From the IMG/VR virus record IMGVR_UViG_3300027917_000026: a DNA stretch of 34,837 nt; one strand, 5' to 3'. The notes beneath the pieces are model-generated. The model had not been told where the DNA came from. It saw nothing but the letters and a program-made list of their open reading frames with translations, and searched no databases. Of the stretch, positions 1,561 through 26,957 are shown piece by piece (the stretch's first letter is position 1; each line of letters starts with the position of its first letter). The DNA is from an uncultured virus (IMG/VR IMGVR_UViG_3300027917_000026). Its lineage: Duplodnaviria; Heunggongvirae; Uroviricota; Caudoviricetes. Both the position numbers and the translations under genes were made by a program.

Positions 1561-1830
1561 TTAACCAAATTTCGGATTAAAACTAATTCTTCGTCGCGTT
1601 GACTTATACCCACCTGTTGACAATTTATATGCGGCTTGCGCCGTTCTTATGTTTCCGGGAGATCCTGTACGTGCAATATGCTTCAGTGCGGCCTTTTTTA
1701 ATTTCGGTGATGTTCGCATACCGCGCTTTAATGCTTCCCGCGCTTTTGCCATATTCAGCTTACGTGCCGCACGTTGTCGCGGGGTGATCCGTTTCGGCCT
1801 AAGACTTTTACTTCTTTTTCTTTTAGCCAT
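1561..1830 (-). CDS. Small Lys/Arg-rich protein, paralog 1 (ITPRQRAARKLNMAKAR motif)
   Basis: SD AAGGAG; very basic; motif shared with 2702-2905 and 3027-3239. Confidence 0.8.
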   Translation of the reverse strand: MAKRKRSKSLRPKRITPRQRAARKLNMAKAREALKRGMRTSPKLKKAALKHIARTGSPGNIRTAQAAYKLSTGGYKSTRRRISFNPKFG

Positions 1831-2692
1831 TTTTACTCCTTAATTTTCTTTTTAATTTCAAGTAGTGTTTCTTGATTGCTCGGAAACAGGTACACCAACT
1901 TTCACTGTCATCCGGCGGCGGAGGCGGATCGGGCGTAGGTGGCGGATCGGGCGGCGATTCTTTTCCGCCAAACATTACTCCCGCTTTGTTTTCGCTTGAC
2001 CCCTCAATTTGTGGCGTTTGCGGGTATTTCCTTGACGGTAAATGCCCCGATATCTTTGTGCCAAATGCGTTGTAGTCAATCGGATATAATTCATTAAGGA
2101 TATTTAAGGCAAACCTTGAAAACAAGCCGCCATTTTCATCTTCATATGAATATTCGTCATCCGAACATGCCGAAAGTAGTATTTCCGGCATTGCCTCATC
2201 CGATAAAAAACTTTTACTACGTTTCGCGGTTAACGGCATATCCGTTTTCGGCTGTCTAAATTTTCTTTTCAATCCTACATCATTTGACATTAATCGCGTG
2301 CCGGTTCCGCCAAAACAGCAATCCAAAATAACGGTCATCGATGACTTCAAATTATTCAAGATTTTTCTGAAGTCATCGTCAAGAAAATCCTGATCGTATA
2401 GGCAAAGTACTTCATCCCAGCCATCCGCTTCATCATTGTTTAGATCCCATTCATACGAACCATGGCCAGAATAGAAAAATACCAAATTGTCTTCGGCGGA
2501 TGCATTGTCAATCATGGTTTTCAAGTCGCCTGTAACCCGCGCCCACGTTGCGTTTGCATTGAAGATATAATTGCACTGATATCCCAATGACTGCAAGAAA
2601 TTGCCCCACTTGGTTGCATCATTGACACATTGCGTCAAATCGTTTTCCCATCCGGGGTAGTCATTTATGCCGACAAGTATTGCCTGTTTCAT
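1823..2692 (-). CDS. Caspase-family (peptidase C14, metacaspase-like) protease
   Basis: AILVGINDY, CVNDA, catalytic FYSGHG, DE.DG.DE, ILDCC, LLSAC, QTPQ motifs; Pro-rich linker and basic C-terminal tail. Confidence 0.92.
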   Translation of the reverse strand: MKQAILVGINDYPGWENDLTQCVNDATKWGNFLQSLGYQCNYIFNANATWARVTGDLKTMIDNASAEDNLVFFYSGHGSYEWDLNNDEADGWDEVLCLYDQDFLDDDFRKILNNLKSSMTVILDCCFGGTGTRLMSNDVGLKRKFRQPKTDMPLTAKRSKSFLSDEAMPEILLSACSDDEYSYEDENGGLFSRFALNILNELYPIDYNAFGTKISGHLPSRKYPQTPQIEGSSENKAGVMFGGKESPPDPPPTPDPPPPPDDSESWCTCFRAIKKHYLKLKRKLRSKNG

Positions 2693-5274: not shown

Positions 5275-6744
5275 CTATTTCCAATATTTTTTGCCTGATG
5301 AAATATATTGCCTGACAGGATAAACCTTGTGAACATAGTAGCCAATTGCGTCTGACATATGTGAAAGCATCGGATCTTTTTTCTTGTCGATTTCACCGGT
5401 GCCGCCTTCAATTATTCGCGTACCCTCAAAATCCTTTATAGTAAATTCGCATGATGGATCGACAACCATATAGACTTCGCCAAACACATTGCACAAGCGG
5501 GAATTCACGGAGTTAACTCGAACACGTTCTTTCGGGTTTGCCATCGGCACTTGAAAATGTAGTCGTTCGCCAAATGTGGGATACAAAACTTTTTTGACAA
5601 GATCCCAATCACTACCCGAAACCTTGGCTGAACCTTTTGCGCCGCCTGTCGCATCACCATAGCAAAAGACTTTGCCTTCATGTTCACCCCAATCTTCTAA
5701 CAATTTGTCGCAAACGCGGATGGTATTGGAATTGCGTTTAATGAATACTTCGCCAATGATTGCAGTTGTTGACTTTCCTGCAATCTTTAATTGGCCTTTG
5801 ATGGGATTGATAAATTCTTGTGCAACGGCGGCAACGCCCGGATCAACGTTGAAGTCAAACATGAAAATCAGATCGCCTTTTTTCTCATAACGTTTTTTCC
5901 ATGGCTGAATGTTCTTCTGTTCATCCCAATTATAATAAGCCATTCCCGCAAATTGAACAAACGATCCTTCATATTCTTGCTGATATGTAAGCAAATCCAT
6001 ATCGCGCTTTGCTTGCTCAATTTCTTCGGGCGGCAAGATATCTGCACTTAACCAATGAAAGCCTTGCCATGTTGGATCATCATCACCAATCGCCTGTTTC
6101 CATAAATCGTAGTAATGATTCCTACCCTCCGGCACGCCTATGAAATCACACGTTCCGCGCCTATCCGATAATGCTGGCCTGACATGTTCTTCCCATGTCT
6201 CAACTTTCATATTTCCATATTCGTCAAGTACTCCATGATCCCACGGCGGCCCCTCAATACGTTCCGGCTTGTCCATTCCTAAAACGTGAATTTCACTACC
6301 ATTCAAAAGGAAGATAATTAATTCGGATTCGGATGGCGTGCGACTCATCAAATGTTTTGGAGTCATTTGTTTCAGATCTTTCCAGAAGATCCGTTTGGCC
6401 TGATCCCTTGTGGGCGCACCCGCAAAATATCTACCATCACCAAATTTACTACCCATTAATGCCTTTAAAATTATTTTGCGCTTACCCATCAATTCTGTTT
6501 TGCCGGATCGCCGCCCCGCAGGAACCACGTTGAATCTCGCGGATGACTGCCACGCCGCTGATTGTTTGGGATGATATTTCAATGGATACCATCGGCGGAT
6601 GTGTGCGGGTGGTAGTCGTCTTTGATGCAACCCGCCACCATAAATTTGCGATACAGGTCTTTTCATATCTGGATCGCCGTAGAAATTTTCAGCCAATGAT
6701 AATCTCAATTTGACTCCTCTGATTCGGTTGGAACTGAATTCCAC
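5275..6744 (-). CDS. terL: Terminase large subunit (true start probably TTG near 6708)
   Basis: Walker A AGRRSGKT, Walker B VLDEY, GVPEG coupling motif, FDFN nuclease motif, C-terminal HMSDAIGY. Confidence 0.95.
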   Translation of the reverse strand: MEFSSNRIRGVKLRLSLAENFYGDPDMKRPVSQIYGGGLHQRRLPPAHIRRWYPLKYHPKQSAAWQSSARFNVVPAGRRSGKTELMGKRKIILKALMGSKFGDGRYFAGAPTRDQAKRIFWKDLKQMTPKHLMSRTPSESELIIFLLNGSEIHVLGMDKPERIEGPPWDHGVLDEYGNMKVETWEEHVRPALSDRRGTCDFIGVPEGRNHYYDLWKQAIGDDDPTWQGFHWLSADILPPEEIEQAKRDMDLLTYQQEYEGSFVQFAGMAYYNWDEQKNIQPWKKRYEKKGDLIFMFDFNVDPGVAAVAQEFINPIKGQLKIAGKSTTAIIGEVFIKRNSNTIRVCDKLLEDWGEHEGKVFCYGDATGGAKGSAKVSGSDWDLVKKVLYPTFGERLHFQVPMANPKERVRVNSVNSRLCNVFGEVYMVVDPSCEFTIKDFEGTRIIEGGTGEIDKKKDPMLSHMSDAIGYYVHKVYPVRQYISSGKKYWK

Positions 6745-7316
6745 AAAGCCATTGCCGCCTGATTAATTTCTTGTGCATACTCTTCCGGCGTTTTGTTTTG
6801 TTGGATTGCGTCTCGACCCCATTCATCTTTCTTCTTTCGTTCAAGGAACCATGCGGCGGCGTGCCATTGCGGTGCCAATGTAGAAACTGTTCTTTCAATT
6901 TCCATTCCTTTGATCCCTTGTTTAATTTTTGACTTCTTTATTTTATATCCGCCTTTACTACATTTTGTTATGACCTCAAGTGCATCATATTCCCTTTGTG
7001 CCTCAAGCGCAATTATCTTTTTTCTGAAGTGCTTATATTTTTTTAAGGTTTTGTCTTTTCCATAATCCATATATTGATTGAATGCTTCAACTGATATTCC
7101 GGCAAGTGCGCACGCGGTTTGACGTGAAAGACCCAAGGCAATTGCTCCATACAATATCTTTTTGCGGCGGCGGGTAAACTTGGATTTATTGCGATTTGTT
7201 TTTCTTTCGCTTCCTTTTCGGCGTTTTATTTTCCTACCAACATCAACGCGCCGTGTCATCCGCCCACGCCGTTCCTTATAGACTACTTTTTTTCGCCTCT
7301 TTATCTTGCGTGCCAT
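6705..7316 (-). CDS. terS: Terminase small subunit with basic N-terminal extension
   Basis: HTH-like AIALGLSRQTACALAGIS and WHAAAWFLER...WGR motif; directly upstream of terL. Confidence 0.8.
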   Translation of the reverse strand: MARKIKRRKKVVYKERRGRMTRRVDVGRKIKRRKGSERKTNRNKSKFTRRRKKILYGAIALGLSRQTACALAGISVEAFNQYMDYGKDKTLKKYKHFRKKIIALEAQREYDALEVITKCSKGGYKIKKSKIKQGIKGMEIERTVSTLAPQWHAAAWFLERKKKDEWGRDAIQQNKTPEEYAQEINQAAMALWNSVPTESEESN

Positions 7317-7408
7317 TATATATTGAGTTAAATTTAACAGGGGTGTTTTGTGTAGATATTGATAAGGTAATGTGTGACGTGACAAGCTAATAAGATATGA
7401 TGGCCTAT

Positions 7409-7437
7409 ATATTACTAAGTCATTTATATTCTGTCAA
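7409..7437 (-). promoter_or_regulatory. Sigma70-type promoter of the leftward packaging operon
   Basis: TTGACA-17 nt-TAATAT on the minus strand. Confidence 0.65.
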
Positions 7438-7599
7438 GCATTTTCTTTAAAAGTAGTCATTCCCGTGAAATTATTGGCCTTTTTTATATATAGTGGTTTG
7501 CAATTAGGAATCTTCTATATCTCAAATATAGTCAAATGGCCTGATATTGGGTATGGTGCCCGGTCATGGTTTAATATCTAAGGTTCTGATATTTATTGA

Positions 7600-8310
7600 A
7601 ATAGCCTACGGCAAACCCTTATAAATAGCGGCTTTAGAGGCCTACGGCAAACCCTTGTTAAATAACCTTCGTCAAATCCACGGTTCCCTAGGCTTTGCGG
7701 CGATTTTGATAGGGTGCGTGTGAGTCCACGATTGTAGGGCATTTGCGGAAGGTCTTTTTAGCCTGTATTTGGGGTACTGTAAAAACGGACACTTTTTTCG
7801 GATCTTCGGCAAACGCTTATGGTTGTAAGGCGGGTGAAAGCTTAAACGTAGCTGTATATCCGCATGGTTATTGGGTTTGGCGAAGTTTGGTCAAAATTGG
7901 ACTGTTTTTACGTTTTTTATGGTTTTGATGCAATATTTTTTAGATGCCTGCTGGCCGCGCATTTGCCGTAGGCGATTTTGCCTGTAAAACCCTATGGATT
8001 GCGGATCTATAAAATGATGCTACAAAGTGGTGTTTTTTAGCATTTTTTTTGCGTTTTTTTGCCGTAGAAACATATTGAAATCATTAGAGATCCTACAGGG
8101 GTTTTTGGGTCGCAGGAAACCCACGGTTTATGCGGATTTACACTTCTGGGATTGCACGTCTTTATTGGATATCCCGAAGGTCTGACAGGGTATTTTGATG
8201 GTCGCAGGAAACCTTAGAGAATAGCGGATTTATAGAAGGCCTTTGCAAAGCTAATATTGACGCTTATTGGCTCTTCGGCTATGTATTGATTTCAGTGGAT
8301 TTGCCGAAGC
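7600..8310. repeat. Field of short degenerate repeats (CCTWCGGCAAA; GGTCGCAGGAAACC; AAACCC-N-GCGGMTTT)
   Basis: GCCTACGGCAAACCCTT at 7604 and 7640; GGTCGCAGGAAACC at 8108 and 8200; inverted TTTGCCGWAG copies near 7962, 8058 and 8300; no credible ORF. Confidence 0.7.
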
Positions 8311-8362
8311 TGTTTCATATTTCTGAAATTGCCTGTATCCGCAAAACACCTGCAAATAGGCC

Positions 8363-8391
8363 TTGACCTTTACCCCAATAATGCCGATAAT
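8363..8391 (+). promoter_or_regulatory. Sigma70-type rightward (early) promoter
   Basis: TTGACC-17 nt-GATAAT. Confidence 0.55.
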
Positions 8392-8674
8392 GTATATAGC
8401 ACCACTGTTTCACGACCGACCGCCCTTGCAAATAGCAAGGGAATTCAACGGCTGAAAGCCATGCAAGGAATCGCGGATCTTTTTAGAATCCATACGGCAC
8501 TTGCAAGATTGAAACGACTTAGTTTGTCGGCGTGGTATCCCTTTGTAGTCAATCGGTGATTGAGATTAGGAATTGTTTATACTGGGGCAATTCTGAAATT
8601 GTTTAGCTACTGTTTCATATGTTTAGTTGACTTTACTTTAAATCAGAGATTGACAATATCAAAGGAACCGAATT

Positions 8675-9461
8675 TTTACCACGATTTGAAGAGTAACCGA
8701 TTGGTGAAAAAAATTGAGTGGATCGAAACAGTAATTGAAATCCGGCAATCACTACAGTGCCGATGTTACCATATAAGATCGATGCTAATTGGCAATAGCC
8801 GTATCAATGTAGTTGTCTATTTGAAACTATGTCGTTAGCTATTGTTTAAGACAGTGAAACTTGTCAGGGTGTGCCAATGACTAGTCCGTTTGGAATGTTC
8901 GAAGAGTAACCCAGCGTTAGGTGAAAAAAGACTTTCAAACACGGCGGCTAGTTAAGCAATATCCCTCTAATGCCTACGGCAACAATAGATTGGACGATGG
9001 TAATGATACTAACAAGAATAAGTCAACGGAGAGTAAAGCTCTAGAGATACCGTGGCTTGAAAGGGTTTGACTAAAGTATTGTTACAGGCCAGCCGAGAAT
9101 TAAGAGAATTGCCTACCTGTTTATCCGCAATAGTAAGACGCAACGCCAATAAGTCGCTGAAAAGAAAATGTAGGAATGTGGGCAAAGCTAATGGGAATCG
9201 CAAGATTTGAACCATGGCATTTATCGGACTTTGATGAAGTCGAGTAGTCAAATATGATATCTAAGCTATGATCCTTGACGTTTTGACCACCTTCGTGCAT
9301 CGGACTAAATAAGCGGGTTCGCAAGAAGAACTTTCCCTGAGTGGTGCTTAATCAGGGCTAACCATAAAATCCTCCTCCTATAAAAGTTATCATTCAAATG
9401 TGGTGGGGCTGATTCGAAGAGTAACAATTGTGAAAAAAGTTTCGGCCCCACCCGTTTGGAT
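8675..9461 (+). ncRNA. Candidate large structured ncRNA (about 800 nt)
   Basis: No ORF with an SD; many nested helices with G-U pairs; GCAA tetraloops; three copies of GAAGAGTAAC-N4-10-GTGAAAAAA, each at the tip of a helix. Confidence 0.65.
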
Positions 9462-9550
9462 ATCCTATGAGTCATGCATGGCTTCGGCAAATGCACGATT
9501 GATAAGGTATCCAAACAATACCTAATAACCCAAAAATAGGAGGTATTACA

Positions 9551-9856
9551 ATGACCATGCACCACATGACAGAACGTGCAATTCTGGATCGTTTGGATGA
9601 CTTCTCTTTCAAGATCGAATTGGTCAAAGATTTTTTTGAACTTGGCGAAGAAATGGATCTATCGCTTGACGATGCAAGCGCAATCGGGCGCGAGATTGAC
9701 AACCTTGTATTGAAGGCAAAGGCCAAACAATCCATGCACCGATGGAAAAAAGCGATGGATGACTTCAAAAAGATCCGCAAGTCGATTGACCTGTTGCGCG
9801 ATTCTTTGGAATCACTGCAAGATGACTTGAATGAAATTGAGGTCAAAAAAGCTTAG
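9551..9856 (+). CDS. Hypothetical early protein (coiled coil)
   Basis: SD AGGAGG; first gene of the rightward arm. Confidence 0.8.
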   Translation: MTMHHMTERAILDRLDDFSFKIELVKDFFELGEEMDLSLDDASAIGREIDNLVLKAKAKQSMHRWKKAMDDFKKIRKSIDLLRDSLESLQDDLNEIEVKKA

Positions 9857-9969
9857 GCTTTGAATTCTCATAGGTACAGTATAGGCCTTCCGCTATACTG
9901 TACCAATTGGGCATTCAAGGGAATGTCCTATTTGGGTTAAATAACTTCATTAAATAGGAGGATTAAAAA

Positions 9970-10209
9970 ATGGAAAGAATGACACGGTACGAAAAAGAAA
10001 TCGGTAGGAAAGTAACTGAAAAAATGCTTGACCATGAACTGGATCGGTTTGTTGACATGGATGAAGCAAAACTGTTGACGCGGCTGAAAAAGATCACTAC
10101 ACCGATTAAGCTTGAGGCTTTTCGCCAGATGGCTTTCATCACAAAAAATCGGAAACTTTACTTCGCCGCAAAAGACAAACTTGCCGATTTCGGTATTACC
10201 ATCAATTAA
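9970..10209 (+). CDS. Hypothetical early protein
   Basis: SD AGGAGG. Confidence 0.8.
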   Translation: MERMTRYEKEIGRKVTEKMLDHELDRFVDMDEAKLLTRLKKITTPIKLEAFRQMAFITKNRKLYFAAKDKLADFGITIN

Positions 10210-10303
10210 AGCGGCATACAACCCGCAATTGCTACATTGGATTGCGGGTTGAATTGTTGGTTTAATTATCAACGTGTCAAAAACAAAAATAGGAGGATTA
10301 ATT

Positions 10304-10522
10304 ATGATTATGGAAAAGCAATTCACGGTTGTTTGTCAACATTGCGGAAAAGTACTACTTGACAAAGGTACTGAAAAATTATCTCACGGTGATTGTCTTG
10401 AATATCACGGCAAACCATGTTCAGCCGGAATGGGATACTTCAAGCAATTGGCAAAAGATATGGAAATGGACTATAACGAAATGTTAGACAATTTCCGCAA
10501 ACGTCTTGACAATCGAAAGTAG
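10304..10522 (+). CDS. Small Zn-binding early protein
   Basis: CQHCG...SHGDC; SD AGGAGG. Confidence 0.75.
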   Translation: MIMEKQFTVVCQHCGKVLLDKGTEKLSHGDCLEYHGKPCSAGMGYFKQLAKDMEMDYNEMLDNFRKRLDNRK

Positions 10523-10626
10523 TCATTAAGCAATCATACAGCCAGCAAGCTTTTAACGAAGTTTGTTGGCTGAATTGAATGCTTAATATCAAGCATTCAT
10601 AAACCCATATTATAGGAGGATTTACC

Positions 10627-10809
10627 ATGGCTAAAAAAAGTAGTAAAGACACAACGGTTGAGGTCACGAAAAACGACAAAGATTCAAAACGCTATTTTCG
10701 CTACAACATTGGCGAACAAGGCGAAAAAATTGTCGGCGGTCTTTACATTTCCAAAGATCTGAAAAAGATCCCGAAGCGTATTGTCCTTGACCTGTCAGAC
10801 GCCGCCTAG
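10627..10809 (+). CDS. Hypothetical early protein
   Basis: SD AGGAGG. Confidence 0.75.
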   Translation: MAKKSSKDTTVEVTKNDKDSKRYFRYNIGEQGEKIVGGLYISKDLKKIPKRIVLDLSDAA

Positions 10810-10930
10810 TAAGGGTTTGCCGGAGGTTAAGCATGTTGAGGTACAGCAAATGACTACATGTGTTTGCTGTACCAATTGGATGCTTAAATCCAGAAACAAA
10901 AAAATAACTCAAAATGGGAGGATTATAATC

Positions 10931-11305
10931 ATGGCAAGTAAAGCTTGCAAACGTCATGGCAATGGCAATGTAGCAAACAATGGCGGCAAGTGGATTCGCC
11001 CGAATAGGCGCAAAGCAATTTATCTTCGCGATGACTTGAAATGCGTTTATTGCGGCAAGGGTATTGAGGATGGAATCATCTTCACGCTTGACCACTTGGT
11101 TTCGCAAGAGTTTGGCGGCGATCATTCAAGTAGTAATTTGGTGACTTGCTGTAAATCTTGCAATTCCGCAAAAGGCAAGAAAACGCAACGGCAATTCTTC
11201 ATGTGGTTGCGCGATCAAGGGGTTGACACCGATCATATTGCCAAACGGATTCGCCGGAATATCCGCCGAAAGCTACCTTTAAAATCACACAAATCAAGGA
11301 TCTAA
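10931..11305 (+). CDS. HNH endonuclease
   Basis: IYLRD..CVYCG...LDHL...GG....NLVTCCKSCN..K; SD GGGAGG before ATG 10931. Confidence 0.9.
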   Translation: MASKACKRHGNGNVANNGGKWIRPNRRKAIYLRDDLKCVYCGKGIEDGIIFTLDHLVSQEFGGDHSSSNLVTCCKSCNSAKGKKTQRQFFMWLRDQGVDTDHIAKRIRRNIRRKLPLKSHKSRI

Positions 11306-16222: not shown

Positions 16223-17650
16223 ATGGATCAGGAAAAATTTATAGACAAATTGCGTGCTGGATTTGCGGGTTTCTGGATGAAAACACATGAACATGACCGT
16301 GTAAGAATTGAGGTCTTCAATGAACTCGGTGAATTCGCCTTGTCAGGCGGAGAGAAATTCACGGTTGCCGAATGGGATTGCATTTCAGAAAAACCCGATC
16401 CAATGTCTCCACTGGCGTTTCTCGATGGCGCGGCTGACAATACCGTCATGTTTCTGTTTAACTACCACTGGTTTATTGATCGTCAAAATGTTATTCAGAA
16501 AATTATTAACAGTATGGCGGCGTGGGCAAACAAAGGCAAAGCAATTGTAGTTGTTAGTCCGATTGAAAAAATTCCAGTCGAACTTCAAAAAGCAATTACA
16601 CTTATCGATTTGCCAATGCCTGATGATGAAGAAATTGTCGATGCCATGAAACACGTTGCGCCTAGTGATGACTACATGCCAAAGAATGCCGAACTTGATG
16701 GATATGTCAGGGTATCACGCGGATTAACTCGAATGGAATTAGAGAATATCTACGCCTTGTGCCTTACAAAGCACAAGCGATTTGACGTGGCAACCATCAA
16801 TGACTACCGCGCTTTAATGGTTAAGAAAAGCGGTTTGGCTGATATCTTGCCACCGACTAAAACCTTTAATGATGTTATCGGATATCAGGTAGTCAAAGAT
16901 CAAGTCATGGATACGATCTTCTATCCAGAGGCAAAAGGTATTATTGCCATTGGGCCGACAGGTACAGGCAAAACAAGCTTGGCACAAGCAATTGCTACAG
17001 AGTCAAATAAGCTTGCCGTTAAAGTCAGAACTGGCAAGCTTTTCTCGAAGTTTCAAGGTGAAACGGATCAAAAGACCGATGCCTTAATTGATATGTTAAC
17101 TGCATTAGGTGATTCGTTTGTATTGTTTGATGAATTCGAGAAGCAATTCGCGGGTGTTGGTTCAAGTGGTGAATTGGATTCCGGCACAACTTCACGGCTG
17201 GGCGGTCGTTTCTTGGAATTCTTTCAAGATACACCGCATGGTATTTATAGATGTGCTACGTGCAATAGCACGCGGGGCATTCCGCCCGAATACTTCCGGC
17301 CGGGTCGCTGGGATAGTGCGCCATGGTATGTTGGTTTGCCTACTGACAAAGTTAAAAAGTCTATTCTCAATCACTACATTGGAAAATTTGAATTGAGCAA
17401 AAAACAAACTAGCACAATCCCAAAAATGCCATTGTGGACTGGCGCTGAAATTGAAGCAATGTGCCACAATGCGCGGATGAGAAAAATTAACTTAGTTGAT
17501 GCAAGTCAATTTATCATCCCGATGGCGTTGACCGCAAAAGAAGAATATGATCAAATGGAACTTTGGGCCAAAGATCGGTGCGTCAATGCTGAAGATATTC
17601 CTAAAGTCAGCATTGCCGTATCTTCGCGGAAACGCAAATTAAAAATGTAG
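16223..17650 (+). CDS. AAA+ ATPase (Ycf46-like)
   Basis: Degenerate N-terminal AAA domain (IPVEL...LPMPD..EI); Walker A GPTGTGKT; Walker B LFDEFEK; FRPGRWD; WTGAEIE. Confidence 0.9.
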   Translation: MDQEKFIDKLRAGFAGFWMKTHEHDRVRIEVFNELGEFALSGGEKFTVAEWDCISEKPDPMSPLAFLDGAADNTVMFLFNYHWFIDRQNVIQKIINSMAAWANKGKAIVVVSPIEKIPVELQKAITLIDLPMPDDEEIVDAMKHVAPSDDYMPKNAELDGYVRVSRGLTRMELENIYALCLTKHKRFDVATINDYRALMVKKSGLADILPPTKTFNDVIGYQVVKDQVMDTIFYPEAKGIIAIGPTGTGKTSLAQAIATESNKLAVKVRTGKLFSKFQGETDQKTDALIDMLTALGDSFVLFDEFEKQFAGVGSSGELDSGTTSRLGGRFLEFFQDTPHGIYRCATCNSTRGIPPEYFRPGRWDSAPWYVGLPTDKVKKSILNHYIGKFELSKKQTSTIPKMPLWTGAEIEAMCHNARMRKINLVDASQFIIPMALTAKEEYDQMELWAKDRCVNAEDIPKVSIAVSSRKRKLKM

Positions 17651-20828: not shown

Positions 20829-22241
20829 ATGAGCAAATATAAAATAGATATATTAGATGAAGTACATTGCAAAGCAAATGCAAAAGCAAGATCTGTCATC
20901 AAATTTGCACTTGGCTACAAAGCCATGCACTGGCGGCGTGGCGAATGGGCAATGGAATCTAATGTAGTTAGACAATTCTTAATCACTGGCCGCAAAGGTA
21001 CAAGCGGTCATTTCCTGACAGGATTACTACCAAGAATTGAAAGGTATTGCGCGAAGCGAATGATCGATCTTGAGATTAATGGTGATAGAGAATTCCTACA
21101 ACCACAAAAAAAGCCGCACTTGCCTGATATTACTTTTCGCAAAGATCAACAAAGGCATTTGCGCAAACTTGCCAATACTCAAAGGGGCAAAATCATTGCA
21201 CCAACAGGTAGTGGAAAAACCATTATTCAATTCGGCCTTGCAAGTATGTTTCCAAATGCCAATATACTACTTTTGGCACATACGACAGACCTTATAAATC
21301 AATTGATAGCTGAATCAGGCCGGTTTCAATTATCATTGCCGCCAATATATTATCCTACAGGCAAAGATGAATGCAAACGTATTATGGAAGCAATTGCGCG
21401 AGACAATAACGGATCATTGATAATCACCACAATTCAAAGCTTCAGCAAAGTACCGCCAGCACTATATTCAACGACTGTAGACATTGCAATGGTCGATGAA
21501 TGCCACCATGTTGCAAACCTTGATGGTCAATACGGAAAATTCTTCCATTACTTGCTTGCACCGCGCCGATATGGTTTTACTGCATCCGATCAGAAAATGG
21601 ATCGGAAAATCAAATTAATAAATGAGGGTCTTCTCGGGCCAGTCATTGCAAAACTTACAGTGCAAGAGGGAATCAAATTGGGCATTATAGCAAAACCAAA
21701 AGTGAAGTTAATTAACGTTCCTTATGATGTTAAGATAAACCAAAGTTGTCATCGATACACGGATTTCTACACCAAGGGTATTGTGCGAAACAAAAAACGC
21801 AATGAATCAATTCGTAAAATTGTTAATATGAATGTAGGCAAAAAAAGGGCAACATTAATTATTGTCGAAAAACTTGAACACGGCAAGATCCTGTCTGACT
21901 TGATTAGCCGAAGATCAAAAGTCAAAGTACATTTTATTAGCGGATCAACAAAACAAAACATAAGACAAAAATTCAAACAACGACTGCTTGACGGAAAAAT
22001 TTTTGCGCTTGTGGTTTCGCGTATTTGGATGGAAGGAATCAATATTCCTAATTTGCGTGCTGTTATATACGCGGCTGGCATGAAAGAACAGAAGAGGACT
22101 ATTCAAGCCATGGGTCGGGGTTTTAGAACCACTAAAACAAAAAAGAAAATACTCCTTTATGATTTTCTCGATCCTTACAAATATTTGTCTTCTCATAGTA
22201 TAGAACGAATGCATGTTTACAATAGGGAAAAATGGTTATGA
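20829..22241 (+). CDS. SF2 DNA helicase (UvsW-like)
   Basis: APTGSGKT, DECHH, GFTAS, EGINIP, QAMGRGFR. Confidence 0.92.
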   Translation: MSKYKIDILDEVHCKANAKARSVIKFALGYKAMHWRRGEWAMESNVVRQFLITGRKGTSGHFLTGLLPRIERYCAKRMIDLEINGDREFLQPQKKPHLPDITFRKDQQRHLRKLANTQRGKIIAPTGSGKTIIQFGLASMFPNANILLLAHTTDLINQLIAESGRFQLSLPPIYYPTGKDECKRIMEAIARDNNGSLIITTIQSFSKVPPALYSTTVDIAMVDECHHVANLDGQYGKFFHYLLAPRRYGFTASDQKMDRKIKLINEGLLGPVIAKLTVQEGIKLGIIAKPKVKLINVPYDVKINQSCHRYTDFYTKGIVRNKKRNESIRKIVNMNVGKKRATLIIVEKLEHGKILSDLISRRSKVKVHFISGSTKQNIRQKFKQRLLDGKIFALVVSRIWMEGINIPNLRAVIYAAGMKEQKRTIQAMGRGFRTTKTKKKILLYDFLDPYKYLSSHSIERMHVYNREKWL

Positions 22242-25205: not shown

Positions 25206-26957
25206 ATGCCGAAACGATATCGAGATCTAGTTACTCGTAGATCCTTGCCTGACGCGGAAGATGAGAAGAACATCTTGGCTTTCAGTATTATGAATACAAA
25301 TGTGGCCGAAGCAATTTCACGGTATTATGAGGATGGTCAACTGAAACTTAAATATTTGACTCCTATTTATCGGCGGCAATATAGATCTGTTTTAAAATAC
25401 TTCAAACAATACGGCAAAGCACCACGCCGCGCCATTAAGTTCATCCATGATGGTGAGAAGGCAAAAATAAAAGATCTCGACGAATTGCAACTCGAAGAGG
25501 ATTTGCTAATCGTATTGGCGCAAGAATATCAAGCAAGACGCGAAGGCTATTCTGTTTCACCGCAATATGTCATCACTGAAATGATACCACGATTTCTACG
25601 CGCCCGAAAAGTCAAAGATATCTCCGACAAAATTGATATGCAACTTGAACGCGGCAATGTGCGTGAGGCGGAAGATCTTATATCTGAATATGATGTAATT
25701 ACGGTTGACCCGCCTGATCATACTTTTGGCATGATCGATACATTATCACATGAATACCAATTAGAGTATTACTACAGAAAATTAAAAGAACCATCAAAAG
25801 ATGTTTTTCGATTTGACGGTGCGCTTGACGCATTGATCGGCCCGCTTAAACGGCAATGGCTTGTTTCTCTAAGTGGCACAACGAAGTCAGGTAAAAGCTA
25901 TTTCCTACTTGACCTTGCAATCAGCGCGGCTGTTTATCAAAAAAGAAATGTTATGTATTTTTGCCCAGAAATGAGCGAAGATGATATGAATGATGAAAGG
26001 GTTATTCCATGGGCAACAAACCGCGCCGCCTCAAAAGAATCGGCAGGTGTAGTATATATCCCAGAATTTGATTGCTTAAACAATCAGATGAATAAATGCA
26101 CCGCAAATCAAAGAGTCAAAAGAGGTAGTAAATATAAAACAGTGCCGTTGCGCACTGTCAATAACAATACCCCACTGACAATATTTGACGAAAGAGAAAA
26201 TGTCAAAGAAGAAAATCAATTGTTTGCCGACAGCAAAGCTGTAGAGAATTGGGAACCATGCACCATTTGTCGTAATGACCGCGAACGTTATAACTACGGT
26301 CTATACAAACGTTTTCGACCATCAATTTACTACAAACCACGAACAATAAAAAAGGTTTCTCGAAAAGTACGCAACAGGGCATTCAAAGGTTTGAAACAAA
26401 GGGGTGCCAATGGTCGATTACAAATAAAGTACTTCCCAAAATACCAATTGACCATTGAGGACACTTTTAATATTGCAAAAAAATATTGCGATAAAAATAA
26501 TTGGCCTGTAGATATAATAATCATTGACTATGTTGATGTTCTGAAACCAACTTCGGGAAACAAAGAAATGACGTGGCAAGACTATGATCATATGTGGAAA
26601 TTATCTTCTGGATTTGCACAAGAAATGGATTCACTAGTTATATCAGCCGATCAAACAACAAAGGCCGGAAGAATTATGCGAACCGTTGACCATACTGTTA
26701 CCCCGCAGGCATCAACAAAAGACCATCACTTAGATGCTAAATTTGCCGTGAATAAATTTGAAGAGGAGACGCTAAATAATCTTTGCCGCGTCAATATAAT
26801 ATACCATCGGCACCGACCATTTAACAGAAATTTAGAAGTCATGTTAACTCAAAACCTAACTTGTGCAAGGGCTTTCCTTGACAGTGCCTTTTGGTACAAC
26901 AAAAAAATGACTACGTACCCAATAAAAATGCCCGAAAACTATGGTGTTGATTTATAA
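25206..26957 (+). CDS. DnaB-like replicative helicase with Cys-rich insertion
   Basis: Walker A GTTKSGKS, PEMS, IIIDYVDVL, ADQ motif. Confidence 0.85.
   Translation: MPKRYRDLVTRRSLPDAEDEKNILAFSIMNTNVAEAISRYYEDGQLKLKYLTPIYRRQYRSVLKYFKQYGKAPRRAIKFIHDGEKAKIKDLDELQLEEDLLIVLAQEYQARREGYSVSPQYVITEMIPRFLRARKVKDISDKIDMQLERGNVREAEDLISEYDVITVDPPDHTFGMIDTLSHEYQLEYYYRKLKEPSKDVFRFDGALDALIGPLKRQWLVSLSGTTKSGKSYFLLDLAISAAVYQKRNVMYFCPEMSEDDMNDERVIPWATNRAASKESAGVVYIPEFDCLNNQMNKCTANQRVKRGSKYKTVPLRTVNNNTPLTIFDERENVKEENQLFADSKAVENWEPCTICRNDRERYNYGLYKRFRPSIYYKPRTIKKVSRKVRNRAFKGLKQRGANGRLQIKYFPKYQLTIEDTFNIAKKYCDKNNWPVDIIIIDYVDVLKPTSGNKEMTWQDYDHMWKLSSGFAQEMDSLVISADQTTKAGRIMRTVDHTVTPQASTKDHHLDAKFAVNKFEEETLNNLCRVNIIYHRHRPFNRNLEVMLTQNLTCARAFLDSAFWYNKKMTTYPIKMPENYGVDL

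Follow-up and report, generated by a model that had tools for sequence, protein, structure and literature searches.

A candidate 5' leader with repeated loop-E-type hairpins ahead of the early operon of an uncultured tailed phage

The locus considered here, in an uncultured tailed phage, raises the question of what lies in the gap between the small terminase gene (terS) and the first rightward early gene, at positions 7386-9550 of a window of 34,837 nt (the whole stretch of viral DNA analysed, IMG/VR record IMGVR_UViG_3300027917_000026). A preliminary description, made from the sequence alone, singled out positions 8675-9461 of this gap, which is poor in open reading frames (ORFs), as a new class of large, ornate non-coding RNA of about 800 nt. 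The reading that we favour, with moderate confidence, is that a longer tract of ~1.15 kb (8398-9550) is a structured, cis-acting 5' leader of the rightward early operon, in which hairpin modules probably dock a protein and the 3' end masks the start of the first gene. The tract is non-coding, one hairpin module recurs in it with covarying stems, and the promoter, a 5' domain and a block complementary to the Shine-Dalgarno (SD) sequence are conserved in a related phage; a free-standing giant RNA is not demonstrated for the stretch. The novelty lies in the RNA motif, the kind of element being a known one, a structured regulatory leader of phage early genes.

The evidence centres on a module of about 45 nt, the positions of which are given in Table 1. 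Its core of 22-28 nt, GAAGAGTAAC-N(4-10)-GTGAAAAA, occurs three times in the window, at 8688, 8901 and 9416, always on the + strand, and was found in none of 100 shuffles of the window; each core lies inside an inverted repeat of different sequence. The outer stem, P1, has 4 to ~20 pairs and is usually closed by a C-G pair after one or two U-U mismatches. The inner loop is purine-rich and invariant (GAAGAGUA on the 5' side, GAAAAAA(G) on the 3' side), and the inner stem, P2, has 2-3 bp in all four copies known, under a cap that varies freely (GAUU, an 8-nt loop, AAUU, GAAA). The fourth copy, the only one in the related phage, has the stem GCAAUAA/UUUAUUGC, GG/CU in P2 and a GAAA cap. The P2 pairs are kept between copies, with AC/GU changing to GG/CU, and six of the 10 modelled pairs change on both sides across the four copies. 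Paired cells make up 72.5% of the total, versus 54.4% in shuffles (2/500 as high) and 20-50% when the partner strand was slid. A covariance model built from the four copies (R1) and run against the window, two phage records and 11 other unrelated loci matched exactly those four, at 45.8-56.7 bits, the next match reaching 13.6 bits (E 0.46). Covariation and model statistics are, at this stage, suggestive rather than conclusive. Two of the three hairpins had been noticed in the preliminary description, which missed the repeated core that they have in common.

Beside P2, AGUA on the 5' strand stands directly opposite GAA on the 3' strand, flanked by helices, in all four copies; this is what we take to be the sequence signature of the loop E, or sarcin-ricin (bulged-G), motif, and the likeness is one of sequence signature only. 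Loop E motifs are typical protein-docking sites and, because of this signature, the one to three copies per leader most likely dock a protein, by analogy with such surfaces. The hairpin motif itself looks new and undescribed, on the basis of its absence from Rfam 15.

Only one other lineage was found, an IMG/VR contig (L019) with a metagenome twin (L027, 99.4% identical). Its TerS is 50% identical to that of the window and its layout is the same (terS, gap, early genes on the other strand), with a leader of ~0.7 kb, ~440 nt shorter than that of the window, and with a single module. When the two gaps are compared by sensitive blastn, only blocks align: 8354-8518, 9327-9382, the module and a few blocks upstream of the promoter. 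The first of these, comprising the promoter and the first 120 nt of the presumed transcript, aligns to L019 2197-2034 with 65% identity (E 5e-10), and the GATAAT hexamer and its flanks are kept at the same place; the start site predicted from this promoter lies at about 8398. RNAalifold on the two-sequence alignment of the 5' domain gave 25 pairs, eight of them compensatory (both sides changed, still paired), as in UGCAAG/CUUGCA versus UGAAAG/CUUUCA. No intrinsic terminator is predicted on the + strand in 8400-9550, and since none is thus expected between ~8398 and the start codon at 9551, a 5' leader fits better than a separate RNA, and the boundaries first proposed, 8675-9461, give way to a unit running over that whole length. 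Within the conserved 5' domain, 8479-8515 also resembles two CRISPR repeat models, one on each strand, at scores below threshold; a CRISPR repeat mimic (RNA anti-CRISPR) was considered here and rejected, the search of 166 nt reaching only 15.5 bits (cut-off 39, E 0.49) and 16.2 bits (cut-off 37, E 1.6) and the matching 3' end not being kept in L019.

At the other end of the tract, a 17-nt block is exact in both phages, inside a conserved block, and holds the pyrimidine-rich sequence CCUCCUAU, ~155 nt upstream of the SD of the first early gene (~115 nt in L019). An 8-bp pairing of CCUCCUAU with this SD is predicted with a probability of 0.86-0.98 in the window, and a comparable helix with 0.82-0.97 in L019, so that masking of the SD is predicted in both phages. 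The closing helix would enclose module 3 and a UUCG-capped hairpin in the window, and a UUCG-capped hairpin at the equivalent place and two others in L019. The element appears tied in cis to the first gene, with the ribosome-binding site of which its 3' end should, by prediction, form a helix. Six early genes (9534, 9952, 10287, 11618, 13090, 14891) have a near-identical ribosome-binding region, AAATAGGAGG(A/T)(T/A)T, mostly preceded by AATAAC, with a strong hairpin and then an AATTG-like sequence 30-60 nt upstream, so that a cassette is repeated between genes; no CCTCC block was seen by eye in the 130 nt upstream of the other five genes sharing this consensus.

Table 1. Features of the leader and its borders, and folding of the leader and of control stretches compared with shuffled sequences (positions in the window; "as good" counts shuffles folding as well as the real sequence)
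Feature	Positions	Strand	Remarks
Small terminase gene terS	6705-7385	leftward	phrog_4102
Sigma-70-like promoter TTGACC-17-GATAAT	8363-8391	+	best + strand match in 7300-10400, 10/12 positions
Conserved 5' domain, three or four hairpins	8398-8520	+	includes CCCTTGC-AAATA-GCAAGGG and stem UGCAAG/CUUGCA
Module copy 1	8677-8725 (core 8688-8713)	+	pattern match; model R1 45.8 bits, E 1.2e-9
Module copy 2, extended outer stem	8876-8958 (model match 8889-8942)	+	pattern match; model R1 48.5 bits, E 2.1e-10
Variable interior, copy 2 excepted	8726-9365	+	stems 8839/8981, 9000/9074, 9109/9178, GCAA-capped hairpins 9197 and 9318, 9336/9351
17-nt block AAAATCCTCCTCCTATA	9366-9382	+	exact in L019 contig (locus L248); inside conserved block 9327-9382
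Predicted anti-SD CCUCCUAU	9374-9381	+	predicted pairing with 9536-9543
Module copy 3, extended outer stem	9392-9461 (model match 9404-9451)	+	model R1 56.7 bits
Long UUCG-capped hairpin	9454-9516	+	inverted repeat I1, 26-nt arms, 81% complementary; 5' arm overlaps 3' arm of copy 3
SD AUAGGAGG (9536-9543) and ATG (9551)	9536-9553	+	from ORF list
First early gene	9551-9856	+	101 aa; no Pfam or PHROG match
Fold, small run	8675-9461	+	z -3.10, 0/20 as good
Fold, small run	8675-9461	-	z -0.01, 11/20 as good
Fold, larger run	8675-9461	+	z -1.63, 14/187 as good
Fold, larger run	8675-9461	-	z -0.20, 78/189 as good
Fold, 787-nt coding control	16300-17086	+	z -2.61, 0/20 as good
Fold, 787-nt coding control	20900-21686	+	z -1.77, 1/20 as good
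Fold, 787-nt coding control	25300-26086	+	z -0.41, 7/20 as good
Fold, 787-nt coding control	5400-6186	-	z -0.47, 6/20 as good
Fold, full leader	8398-9550	+	z -4.80, 0/92 as good
Fold, full leader	8398-9550	-	z -3.72, 0/78 as good
Fold, 1153-nt gene-region control	9551-10703	+	z -6.68, 0/38 as good
Fold, 1153-nt gene-region control	16300-17452	+	z -4.52, 0/39 as good

A mechanism can be proposed from these elements. Host RNA polymerase would start at the conserved sigma-70-like promoter, and the nascent RNA would fold into the conserved 5' domain and the three copies of the module, which would serve as binding sites for a host or phage protein; the anti-SD at the 3' end of the leader would form a helix with the first early gene's ribosome-binding site, and the folding or binding state of the leader would then decide on the translation of this gene. 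Transcription as one RNA, the binding of a protein to the modules and a regulatory output are what we infer here. As for this output, control of translation or of stability is put forward tentatively, and transcription antitermination is the more doubtful proposal. If real, the element would enlarge the small set of RNA elements that control the first minutes of phage infection by a motif not described before and by a structured leader of great length; the motif, a compact and repeated one, sets ~15 invariant purines between two helices.

The claim that the stretch has no credible ORF holds: the longest ORF on the + strand of 8400-9550 has 92 codons, with a TTG start (8560-8838) and without a ribosome-binding site of the phage's own type, and no peptide is common to the leaders of the window and of L019 (best match E 0.011 over 15 aa). 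All of the complementary segment pairs first listed are present in the sequence and most recur in the minimum-energy fold. That such pairing exceeds chance over the whole stretch is not borne out, the z of -1.63 lying within the range of the coding controls; windows of 150 nt (starts 8676-9276, + strand) gave z from -0.5 to +1.2, and thermodynamics neither supports nor singles out 8675-9461. Coding stretches of this phage themselves beat dinucleotide shuffles, with z of -4.5 and -6.7 at 1153 nt and down to -2.6 at 787 nt. As coding sequence here folds 1-6 standard deviations better than shuffles, structure is overstated both by stems picked out visually and by any one z-score. Like the downstream genes, the leader has a purine-rich + strand. 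Against shuffles, copy 3 (9393-9462) does exceed chance, with z -6.22 on the + strand (0/200 as good; -3.23 on the - strand), as does the repeated core, whereas copies 1 and 2 taken alone are unexceptional (z -0.38, 59/200, and z -0.89, 37/200, respectively, copy 2 having 20 Watson-Crick and four G-U pairs).

Several observations weigh against the leader as proposed here, and some of them lend themselves to other explanations. The overall folding energy of the region, which coding controls match, is the first of these; in L019 the sense strand of the leader is not favoured (z -2.38, versus -2.97 for antisense), and hairpins capped by GNRA or UNCG are not significantly enriched in the leader of the window (three seen versus 1.4 expected, with 161 of 1000 shuffles reaching three). 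Most of 8520-9326, ~800 nt of interior, has no match in L019 except for one of 34 nt (E 4), and in the variable interior (8726-9365) local z is about 0, with no alignable similarity to L019 except for 9327-9382. The interior might, thus, be mostly functionless spacer, e.g. decayed early genes, with pairings such as any 800 nt of this genome would show, and only the parts close to the promoter and to the ribosome-binding site would matter; we consider this very unlikely, given that it leaves unexplained three exactly kept cores whose stems differ but still pair, the occurrence of a further copy in a phage with so distant a TerS, and the very long leader kept by both phages.

Strandedness also weighs in part against the leader. 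Three of the four modules (copies 1 and 2 and that of L019) fold with about the same stability on either strand. The conserved CCTCCTCC-TATA block could be a promoter spacer and -10 element, the promoter scan calling TGGTCA-16-TATATT there in L019. Such observations would suit conserved pieces that act as DNA (operators, promoters, packaging or replication sites of a control region between terS and the early genes), with incidental RNA folding; the gap adjoins terS and is studded with the 9-mer CYWCGGCAA in both orientations, and the core contains the palindrome TTCGAA. Sites in DNA are nevertheless quite unlikely to account for the module: its flanking inverted repeats vary and yet stay complementary, which a double-stranded DNA site does not need, the core spacer of 4-10 nt is awkward for a promoter or an operator, all four copies are in the orientation of the early genes, and copy 3 needs three G-U pairs and folds 13.6 kcal/mol better on the + strand (dG -33.1, versus -19.5 on the - strand).

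Other points against the leader concern its unity and its function. No RNA run is among the public runs that hold the window, and both ends of the RNA, like its being one molecule, are predictions. The module statistics come from three paralogues in one genome and one orthologue, i.e. from two lineages, and the number and position of modules differ between the phages, the L019 module lying upstream of the anti-SD and copy 3 of the window downstream of it. Two partners compete for the 3' arm of module 3, its own 5' arm and 9509-9516, in states ~2 kcal/mol apart; no alternative fold freeing the SD was found, forcing of the module-3 stem leaving the SD paired, and, as the SD is masked in both states, no switch is demonstrated. 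Nor do the predicted folds support a chain of alternative pairings that would lead from module 3 to the SD. Finally, TTGATA-18-TAATAA at 9499-9528, seen by eye and not called by the promoter scan, could be the first gene's own promoter.

A separate promoter for the first gene would leave room for a stand-alone, ornate non-coding RNA expressed first in infection and acting in trans as a scaffold or decoy, the modules being multivalent sites for binding or self-association. The long ORF-free tract (~1.15 kb here and ~0.7 kb in L019), the three copies of one module, the lack of a match in Rfam, and the palindromic or wobble-palindromic UYGA contained in each module, which could pair between modules, are all compatible with such an RNA. 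We nonetheless regard it as unlikely: ahead of the first gene, neither a terminator nor another defined 3' end is predicted; the sole relative has a leader of another length, with another number of modules, and does not share the interior; the folding energy does not stand out in this genome; a predicted pairing in cis joins the 3' end to the first gene's ribosome-binding site; and there are no tRNA genes nearby. A more speculative version, which we hold to be highly improbable, is that of a first example of a multivalent phage RNA made of loop-E-type modules and acting in trans at the very start of infection, with SD masking as a secondary effect. As a decoy it could sequester a host factor that recognizes RNA of the loop-E or sarcin-ricin kind, for instance a ribosomal protein, or a defence nuclease directed at a loop of this type; alternatively, it could self-associate through the palindromic UYGA, by analogy with the self-assembly of GOLLD and ROOL. 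What survives of the original proposal is a non-coding, structured element on the + strand, probably transcribed early and with a conserved promoter upstream, heading the early operon; the ornate RNA class of ~800 nt is not supported.

The modules might instead be RNA processing signals of the RNase III type, as in the early transcript of T7, cutting the leader, leaving protective hairpins and setting mRNA stability instead of binding a regulator. An early phage transcript does carry them as a repeated hairpin whose internal loop is conserved, and strong hairpins are common between the genes of the early operon. However, the stem above the internal loop is too short to sit easily with this role (2-3 bp), all three copies lie in the untranslated leader, and the intergenic hairpins lack the module core, so that processing appears improbable as the function of the module, and docking of a protein on a cis-acting leader remains the reading that we prefer.

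Searches for further copies returned no third lineage. An exact-core scan of IMG/VR gave 11 matches, all of them single copies without a flanking stem, and a second one gave six, of which only the L019 contig was real. A relaxed-core scan returned at least 119 stretches; among the 120 matches listed, only L019 and one other locus (L075) had the P2 pair together with a strong flank, and L075 was rejected because it spans a gene junction. Of 88 core matches in GTDB genomes, seven were compatible with P2, and the stem closed on the core in none of the 27 examined (the 20 best by duplex energy and the seven compatible with P2). Searches with the 5'-domain pattern and with the 17-mer (12 matches) retrieved only the L019 contig as related. 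Relatives of the large terminase (L015-L017 and MW202621) are not syntenic and lack the leader, and no relatives were found with the first early protein as query. A TerS search had no match in GenBank phages and none in GTDB contigs, and gave one locus (L027) in metagenome contigs, but a TerS profile search found 48 related proteins at E <=1e-5, 38 of them below 1e-25 and three 78-82% identical to that of the window. With at least 38 TerS-related protein clusters in public assemblies, a proper covariation test is within reach as soon as their DNA is read.

Read in reverse complement, the window corresponds to part of a longer IMG/VR record (G001, 49.5 kb), and the public sequencing runs that hold it are marine-sediment and estuary metagenomes; two other runs gave short pieces only, with 0 or 1 differing letters, and no variants were found. 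It is part of a tailed phage with leftward genes for the portal protein (1-1401), the large terminase (5275-6744) and the small terminase, and with many small early genes running rightward from 9551, followed by an AAA ATPase, helicases and a primase. The ORF 1823-2692 (- strand, 289 aa), with head and packaging genes around it, has a caspase domain (Peptidase_C14, E 2.3e-24), and an HNH endonuclease ORF lies at 10781-11305 among the small early genes. The CYWCGGCAA 9-mer occurs 13 times in the window, eight of these in 7606-9482 of the 2-kb non-coding gap, in both orientations and often arranged GCCTACGGCAAA / TTTGCCGTAGGC; two sites, 8974 and 9482, lie inside the leader, and the other positions in the window are 11571, 14699, 27048, 31379 and 32927. 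The set looks like an array of protein-binding sites beside terS, which may serve packaging or replication, or else a regulator. Upstream of the leader promoter, the 18-nt block AAAAACGGACACTTTTTT at 7781-7798 is 100% identical at L019 2556-2539, despite the 50% identity of TerS. Near-perfect palindromes on the L019 - strand, TACCACATTGTGGTA (2407-2393) and GCTACATTGTGGTAC (2317-2303), look like operators upstream of the L019 leader promoter, and have only a degenerate counterpart in the window, near 8019.

As to known RNA families, the covariance models of Rfam 15 gave 0 matches at the gathering score in the whole window, and so none to an rRNA family or to a family of short boxB-type hairpins, and at E up to 10 only two chance-level matches in 7300-9700, SAM-II and SNORD46. 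A full-text literature search on ROOL, GOLLD and phage non-coding RNA listed nothing on this element; apart from the lack of a match in Rfam 15, no search was made that could show the motif to be unpublished. The GOLLD and ROOL families are presumably included in Rfam 15, and tRNA genes are frequent neighbours of both, whereas ARAGORN found 0 tRNA genes in the window. The likeness to them lies in a long, ORF-free, phage-borne RNA candidate with many predicted stems. A conserved multi-stem architecture over 600-800 nt is not seen, the interior being unaligned to the sole relative (a weak test with one relative), and the element differs from them in abutting the first gene, with the ribosome-binding site of which it is predicted to pair. 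An interior without conservation, a leader in L019 that differs in length and in number of modules, and an unremarkable folding energy argue against a new large, ornate class like GOLLD and ROOL. Both of these RNAs are reported to form RNA-only multimers (Nature 2025, PMC12286853).

The lambda nut (boxB/N) and HK022 put sites resemble the module in being transcript hairpins that follow closely on an early promoter and are present more than once per genome, with genes separated by hairpins downstream, one of which, here, is terminator-like (9909-9928). The lambda system combines a short boxB hairpin and boxA with a small, arginine-rich N protein, and HK022 put consists of two adjacent stem-loops of ~70 nt just downstream of the early promoter. 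The module differs in sequence and shape, being a single hairpin with a large internal loop rather than a 15-nt boxB or a two-stem put, all of its copies are in one leader, and copy 1 starts ~280 nt after the predicted start site; no small, arginine-rich protein like lambda N was seen by eye among the 18 early ORFs translated. In the early transcript of T7, the RNase III sites are repeated hairpins with a conserved internal loop, and the stem of known RNase III sites, split by the internal loop, amounts to about two helical turns in total. The module lacks the two-turn stem, its upper stem being of 2-3 bp in all four copies, and sits in a leader, not between genes. Its likeness to nut and put is, therefore, one of position only and that to T7 RNase III sites is loose, the module lacking the shape features of both. 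Loop E is a structural building block rather than an RNA family, and the module adds to it an invariant purine stretch (GAAG opposite AAAA) and a free apical loop. Leaders that mask a ribosome-binding site, such as translational operators and riboswitch platforms, usefully complete the comparison: no ligand- or protein-sensing aptamer was identified in the present leader, nor an alternative fold freeing the SD, and what it has in common with them is a conserved anti-SD complementary to the SD, predicted in both phages.

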